A stretch of DNA of 19,881 nt. Source: Escherichia coli (lineage in GTDB: Bacteria; Pseudomonadota; Gammaproteobacteria; Enterobacterales; Enterobacteriaceae). The DNA lies in the NCBI RefSeq assembly GCF_003334785.1, contig NZ_QOWV01000032.1. The stretch is one strand, 5' to 3'. Below the pieces are notes generated by a model that was not told where the DNA came from, did not search any database, and saw only the letters and a list, made by a program, of their open reading frames with translations. Below, one piece after another: positions 349 to 717 of this stretch. A program made the translations under genes and the position numbers. Numbering within the stretch: the first letter of the stretch is position 1; each line of letters starts with the position of its first letter.

Positions 349-717
349 GTGAGTATTGCAGGATTAAGAATTGCACATGTTGTTTGTTTATTTGGTTGTA
401 GCCCTGTTAATGCAGCAGATAATGTTAGTCAACATAAATTTGAAGCAGTCTTGGGTGCCACAATATTAATCTACGATTTAAGTGGGAATTGGGAGAGTCT
501 TCGAGTAAAAAAACTGCAAGAGTATCCTATTTTAGTTCCGCGGCTTCCTGCTACGTGGAATTCTGTTACCGGTGAAAAAGCTTCACCAGAATTTCTCACT
601 GTGTTGTTTCCTTGCGTGAGAATGTTGCCATTTTGCATCAAAATCAAATTCGGGTTAAAACAATGTATGCCAATGTTACATTTCTTTGATGTATGTCATT
701 TTTTTGGAAAAAAATAA
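349..717 (+). CDS. hypothetical ORF (122 aa, GTG start), doubtful
   Basis: Only ORF >60 aa in the 900-bp AT-rich leader. GAGGGG lies a few nt upstream of the GTG. The translation has no motif I recognise and an odd composition; it may be non-coding. Confidence 0.2.
   Translation: MSIAGLRIAHVVCLFGCSPVNAADNVSQHKFEAVLGATILIYDLSGNWESLRVKKLQEYPILVPRLPATWNSVTGEKASPEFLTVLFPCVRMLPFCIKIKFGLKQCMPMLHFFDVCHFFGKK

Follow-up and report, generated by a model that had tools for sequence, protein, structure and literature searches.

What is the 122-aa open reading frame (ORF) that precedes the type VI secretion system (T6SS) genes on this stretch of Escherichia coli plasmid DNA: a gene, the remains of one, or a frame that happens to be open? 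The window, by which we mean the whole stretch of DNA analysed (19,881 nucleotides), is 100% identical over positions 180-1090 to the E. coli plasmid pWP7-S17-ESBL-04_2 (NZ_AP022179). Its PGAP annotation lists, in order, a complete istA gene of IS100, istB in truncated form (window 44-148), a 'hypothetical protein' for the ORF (WP_126720455), and tssB followed by tssC. The T6SS cluster fills the rest of the window, with TssE, VgrG, TssA, TssK, TssL and ClpV recognised by NCBIfam models and tssF by PGAP. Similar DNA was found in just 15 of 5,426 complete E. coli genomes, every time on plasmids, and a literature search on plasmid-borne T6SSs of E. coli yielded nothing specific to this locus. Three ORFs within the cluster, of 173 aa (3054-3575), 155 aa (8787-9254) and 183 aa (10650-11201), have no NCBIfam match at E ≤ 0.001; PGAP labels the first either 'type VI secretion protein' or 'hypothetical protein', depending on the plasmid, and judging by their position these ORFs may be Hcp-, PAAR/adaptor- or TssJ-like.

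A preliminary description of the locus, made from the sequence alone, had noted the GTG start of the 122-aa ORF and a possible ribosome-binding site (RBS), had called it the only long ORF between the IS remnant and tssB, and had considered its coding status doubtful. The start, the RBS and the isolation of the ORF are confirmed: a Shine-Dalgarno-like GAGGGG at 340-345 lies 4-9 nt upstream of the GTG, the frame closes with a TAA at 715-717, and no second ORF of at least 100 aa exists between the istB stub and tssB. The doubt was justified as well, given the frequency with which the frame is broken in related plasmids (seven of ten, see below), the lack of a Pfam domain (zero families for the 122-aa sequence, even at E ≤ 10) and the three-piece origin described here. 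The exact 122-aa sequence is nonetheless present on 193 contigs, which makes it an annotation that has spread widely; intact versions of 119-129 aa, labelled 'hypothetical protein' by PGAP, are common in E. coli assemblies, and variants of 75, 89, 97 and 128 aa are found in large protein collections. When the longest ORF was recorded in each of 2000 dinucleotide-preserving shuffles of 181-1086, it averaged 64 aa (sd 17) and attained 122 aa or more in just 0.65% of them. The frame is thus longer than chance would give, and its being open calls for an explanation. The features that provide one are collected in Table 1.

Table 1. Features of the region between the IS100 remnant and the first T6SS gene (window coordinates)
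Position	Strand	Feature	Basis
1-181	+	IS100 (IS21 family) remnant: istA 3' end and istB 5' stub (44 to ~181)	PGAP on NZ_AP022179 (istB 'missing C-terminus'); alignment
218-348	+	DNA once upstream (leader) of a fimbrial chaperone gene of CS3 type, with RBS GAGGGG at 340-345	blastn against Kosakonia sp. MUSA4
349-538	+	Truncated pseudogene: the initial 63 codons of a fimbrial chaperone (PapD-like, CS3/Saf type), from start codon through signal peptide to first beta-strands	Protein and DNA homology
540-607	+	Scrap from the 3' end of an accessory 'transposase' gene, orfA of the IS66 family (435 nt), matching its nt ~327-405	Local alignment; tblastn; database matches
349-717	+	Reported 122-aa ORF, an accidental frame across three pieces	ORF listing; alignment of relatives; shuffles
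613-1086	+	AT-rich leader of the T6SS cluster	Homology with more distant plasmid T6SS clusters; non-coding there
1087-1563	+	tssB, first gene of the T6SS cluster	PGAP on identical and related plasmids

The N-terminal half of the ORF is clearly related to fimbrial chaperones. A tblastn search with the ORF against 72,556 plasmids matched, at aa 14-63 and with 60% identity (E 6e-10), a 'molecular chaperone' gene of enterotoxigenic E. coli (ETEC). This gene encodes CstA, the chaperone whose gene heads the CS3 fimbrial operon (pETEC_80, WP_001391304). Pairwise tblastn against cstA extended over window positions 388-537 (E 1e-15) and detected no further similarity in any frame, and the DNA identity to cstA (73.6%) likewise ends at 538. 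A word-indexed protein search had returned the ORF's own variants alone, and a full-length relative emerged only when 1.84 billion representatives were searched exhaustively with phmmer: a 244-aa protein (P0006) with 67% identity over ORF aa 1-64 (E 1.9e-16), whose signal peptide aligns with ORF aa 1-23. This protein is the chromosomally encoded chaperone WP_208657277 of Kosakonia sp. MUSA4, which carries both PapD_N and PapD_C and sits in an operon of chaperone, usher and two subunits, with an AraC-family gene nearby. What the stub shares with the CstA and Kosakonia chaperones is thus the signal peptide and the first ~40 mature residues, at 60% and 67% identity respectively; with Kosakonia, the upstream region and the start codon are homologous at the DNA level too. 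By blastn, window 218-534 aligns with the Kosakonia sequence (L018 5872-6189) at 74% identity (E 2e-49), in an alignment that takes in ~130 nt 5' of the gene and sets the GTG of the ORF against the ATG of the chaperone. Because this homology runs across the upstream region and the start, the RBS, the start codon and the first 63 codons are what remains of an actual chaperone gene at its 5' end, severed after codon 63. For this half of the translation, the earlier verdict of no recognisable match is consequently no longer tenable, fimbrial chaperones being matched by tblastn, phmmer and blastn alike.

Beyond codon 63 nothing of the chaperone is left. Every comparison ends at 538, and further chaperone similarity is absent from all frames of window 1-1200. 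Compared with the CstA and Kosakonia genes, the stub keeps 63 of ~242 codons, the rest of PapD_N and the whole of PapD_C (PF02753) being gone; the two Ig-like domains and the ~220-250 aa of a complete chaperone are missing, with homology limited to residues 1-65 of chaperones of 241-244 aa. The ORF does not match the PapD_N profile (PF00345) in Pfam, its sole chaperone match in NCBIfam, to SafB, is weak (E 0.0038, 16.8 bits against a cutoff of 475), and so is a match to DraB in the PDB. An extension of the chaperone homology to aa ~92, suggested by the SafB, Pseudomonas and MAFFT alignments, was rejected, as the best homologues end at aa 64 and IS66 orfA explains 540-607 better.

Even the part that is retained departs from the family. 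In the TR(v/l)IY motif the stub has Ile (LGATILIY) in place of the otherwise invariant Arg, which we take to correspond to Arg8 of PapD, the cleft residue anchoring the C-terminus of the subunit; Trp likewise stands where Gly is conserved. The four intact chaperones examined (CstA, P0006, the pDW54_1 chaperone and a P. savastanoi chaperone) all carry the Arg, and the Ile is common to all aligned relatives of the ORF; with a best DNA match of only 74% identity, decay and divergence are inseparable here. Nor are there usher or fimbrial subunit genes beside the stub, which is followed by the IS66 scrap and then tssB, unlike in its intact relatives, which have both. These differences from CstA-type chaperones are those of a dead fragment. 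The ORF is thus derived from a member of the PapD-like chaperone family and is not itself a member.

The operon that donated the fragment was not found: a blastn search with 'distant' settings, using 200-640 as query against the 5,426 complete E. coli genomes, recovered only the same ten plasmids that are aligned below, and tblastx of 539-1086 against two CS3-type operons revealed no other operon parts. Intact CS3-type operons on pDW54_1 (L006 1880-4702) and pETEC_80 (L005 3310-5690) directly adjoin IS66- or IS21-family elements, the same families whose scraps flank the stub here. This coincidence may mean no more than that fimbrial operons on plasmids tend to lie among many ISs.

The second piece of the ORF comes from an insertion sequence. 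Small tblastx and blastn matches pointed to an IS66-family 'transposase' (orfA) gene, and a dedicated search with 530-720 matched many such genes. Local alignment against the orfA of pSA31IncI2 (L019), a copy located beside ISEc23, scored 51, compared with 16.3 ± 2.1 (maximum 29) for 3000 shuffles. In tblastn the similarity falls in two frames, AASCYVEFCY against AASCHVEFHY in one and SPEFLTVL against SPELLTVL in the other, so that the motifs AASC(H/Y)VEF and SPE(L/F)LTVL are both kept. The two orfA frames are separated by an internal deletion of 10-11 nt within the scrap, and it is because of this frame shift that the middle of the ORF partly reads the old orfA frame, by accident. Weaker orfA similarity may continue to about 612. 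A complete IS66 element, with orfA, orfB, orfC and terminal inverted repeats, is not present: compared with an intact orfA, what remains is ~70 nt of the 3' end, carrying the deletion and devoid of the start, of orfB and orfC and of the terminal repeats. No orfB or orfC similarity was detected 3' of the scrap, where the T6SS leader begins at about 613. In a search for the origin of 539-615, the exact 22-mer 553-574 had no match in 100,044 species-representative genomes.

The third piece is the beginning of the T6SS leader, the first ~105 nt of which give the ORF its last ~35 codons and its stop. The T6SS leaders of pNMBU-W12E19_01, pAA C700-09 and pSNE1-2010K-2159 are 80-86% identical to the window from ~616 or 636 to 1086, the homology starting at ~616 in the Salmonella Newport plasmid and at 636 in pNMBU-W12E19_01 and in the enteroaggregative E. 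coli (EAEC) plasmid pAA C700-09. They differ from the present locus in having other DNA upstream of the common part and no long ORF. Since no corresponding long ORF occurs in the equivalent leader of these related loci, the last ~35 codons of the ORF are non-coding leader. These T6SS relatives are also without 218-612, and hence without the chaperone stub. Still more distant relatives have the leader in common only from 886 or 988, and this nested series of starting points (616, 636, 886 and 988, depending on the lineage) implies that the upstream border of the T6SS module has been repeatedly reshuffled. The cluster itself is carried both by the EAEC pAA plasmid (C700-09) and by an IncI-type plasmid of Salmonella Newport.

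The preliminary description had proposed that the ORF might be either a decayed gene fragment or non-coding leader DNA. Each proposal turns out to hold for a part of it, the former for codons 1-63 (chaperone) and ~65-86 (IS66 orfA), the latter for codons ~89-122; what had escaped notice is that the ORF is chimeric. This composition accounts for the excess length of the frame, since codons 1-63, and a few more at about 583-606, have genuine coding sequence as their ancestor. A run of 59 stop-free codons beyond the stub occurs in ~2% of shuffles of 539-900, a figure that treats the whole of 539-717 as random, when part of those 59 codons has coding ancestry.

To what extent the frame is maintained can be seen in an alignment of ten closely related E. 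coli plasmids, which are 93-100% identical. The frame is disrupted in seven of them and full-length in three. Five different lesions are involved: an additional A in the run of A at 507-513, a duplication of 8 nt following position 386, loss of an A near 575, an additional T near 530, and a change of the start from GTG to GTT, some of the homopolymer frameshifts possibly being assembly errors. The position of the stop also varies, leaving open frames of 119, 122 or 128 aa. Substitutions in the relatives comprise 22 non-synonymous and 11 synonymous changes, and variable sites are evenly spread over codon positions 1, 2 and 3 (12, 8 and 12 sites respectively). The conserved frame with an excess of synonymous changes expected of a functional gene is thus lacking in these ten plasmids, and there is no selection for the frame. 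It had been suggested that a conserved homologue would establish the ORF as a real gene. Homologues do exist, for the first 63 codons only, and all of them are full-length chaperones of ~240 aa; this is the signature of a truncation rather than of a real 122-aa gene, and the read-through part is not maintained in the relatives.

We therefore consider it very probable that the ORF is a non-functional chimeric frame that arose as DNA of an IncF-type plasmid of E. coli was rearranged: three gene scraps and not a gene. The three homologies, the breakpoints between them and the lack of frame conservation are matters of direct observation. The events behind them can be pictured as follows. A fragment of a CS3/Saf-type chaperone-usher operon would have been severed after codon 63 of its chaperone gene, bringing with it the RBS, ~130 nt of upstream DNA and the coding part from the start codon through the signal peptide to the first beta-strands. 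This fragment would have been joined to the ~70-nt scrap of IS66 orfA, and the scrap in turn to the T6SS leader. The chaperone frame would by chance have remained open across the scrap, the 11-nt deletion placing the SPEFLTVL of orfA in register, and then for ~105 nt of leader up to the TAA. As for the order of these events, we infer an IS-mediated insertion followed by deletions. Translation of the ORF is possible, since the RBS and start are preserved. The product would then consist of a signal peptide, ~40 residues of the chaperone N-domain without the essential Arg, and ~60 residues of nonsense, and would be unable to form either Ig-like domain of a PapD-like chaperone; in all likelihood it would have no function at all.

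Three other readings have to be weighed against the chimeric one. The fragment could serve as regulatory DNA, either a captured fimbrial promoter or leader or a stub acting as an upstream ORF, that drives or modulates transcription into tssB. The ~130 nt of former upstream region and the RBS have indeed been retained in the same orientation as tssB, and the closest intact operon has the AraC-family regulator gene near it. Nevertheless, positions 215-348 are the most variable part of the region, a sigma-70 consensus scan of 1-1200 found no promoter-like site on the + strand (promoter and terminator counts being at the level of shuffles), and Rfam detected no element at threshold, its one sub-threshold match in 1-1300, to a eukaryotic snoRNA, being due to chance. 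Furthermore, this T6SS family has its own conserved leader of ~470 nt, and on other plasmids it works as a unit with no such fragment present. We regard a regulatory role as very unlikely, and still less likely that the captured upstream region and translatable stub form an acquired T6SS regulatory module, acting as a promoter or as an upstream ORF that when translated affects read-through into tssB, which the lineages with an intact frame keep for that reason.

The ORF might instead be a chance frame in pure non-coding T6SS leader, with no coding ancestry. The region directly 5' of tssB is AT-rich (25-40% GC) and the last ~100 nt of the ORF really are common leader. This reading is refuted for 349-607, where the first 190 nt are homologous at both DNA and protein level to intact chaperone genes and 540-607 to IS66 orfA; that T6SS relatives do without 218-612 and that so few shuffles yield an ORF this long also count against it, and little credence can be given to it for the ORF as a whole. 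Least plausible of all, and hardly to be entertained, is a genuine small gene for a periplasmic or secreted protein of ~100 aa with a signal peptide, derived from the chaperone N-terminus and perhaps accessory to the plasmid T6SS: the preserved Shine-Dalgarno sequence, start codon and signal peptide, the PGAP-annotated intact copies on many contigs and a length in the top 0.65% of shuffles are outweighed by independent lesions in seven of ten relatives, a near-neutral dN/dS pattern, a C-terminal half made of IS66 scrap and of leader that is non-coding in relatives, the absence of any domain, and T6SS clusters of the same family that are entirely without the ORF.

Other features of the region were recorded alongside the chimeric frame. 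At the left end, the istB stub is not only truncated, at ~181, but also interrupted, since 149-151 reads TAG in frame (CAG in most of the related plasmids). A poly-G run (9 G) within 201-214 marks the left junction of the fimbrial fragment, and its length and adjacent bases vary among relatives. Up to this run the left flank of three relatives (L011-L013), beside an IS3-family element, is unrelated to the window, and in the alignment they share sequence with it from about 205-210 onward. A 22-nt inverted repeat (177-198 and 741-762, 86% complementary; AGCATTGAAACTGTTTTAATAA / TTATTAAAAATGTTTCAATACT) brackets the whole mosaic, its left arm beginning where the IS100 homology ends and its right arm lying inside the conserved T6SS leader. 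The left arm is missing in the three relatives with the different flank, the right arm is found in relatives without the mosaic, and the repeat is probably a product of chance in AT-rich DNA. At the other end of the leader, overlapping palindromes (TTATCATCATCAAA...TTTGATGATAA) occupy 992-1066, 20-95 nt 5' of tssB, in a stretch conserved even in the most distant T6SS relatives; they could be an operator or a 5'-UTR hairpin. A Fur box in the leader was considered and rejected, the best candidate (13/19, at 995) being equalled or beaten by 31% of shuffles.

The mosaic between the IS100 stub and tssB is ordinary genomic debris of known kinds, whose remnants would stem from IS-associated rearrangements where the plasmid's T6SS island has its left border. 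For annotation, this means that WP_126720455, WP_149005514 and their variants, which appear on hundreds of E. coli contigs, are a chimeric pseudogene, and that entries of the WP_126720455 type should be flagged as a chaperone fragment rather than as a gene. For the T6SS island, the succession of IS100 stub, fimbrial-operon fragment, IS66 scrap and T6SS leader is a record of its left border, and it places the start of the conserved leader at ~613-636, which is useful for mapping the promoter of this plasmid-borne T6SS.
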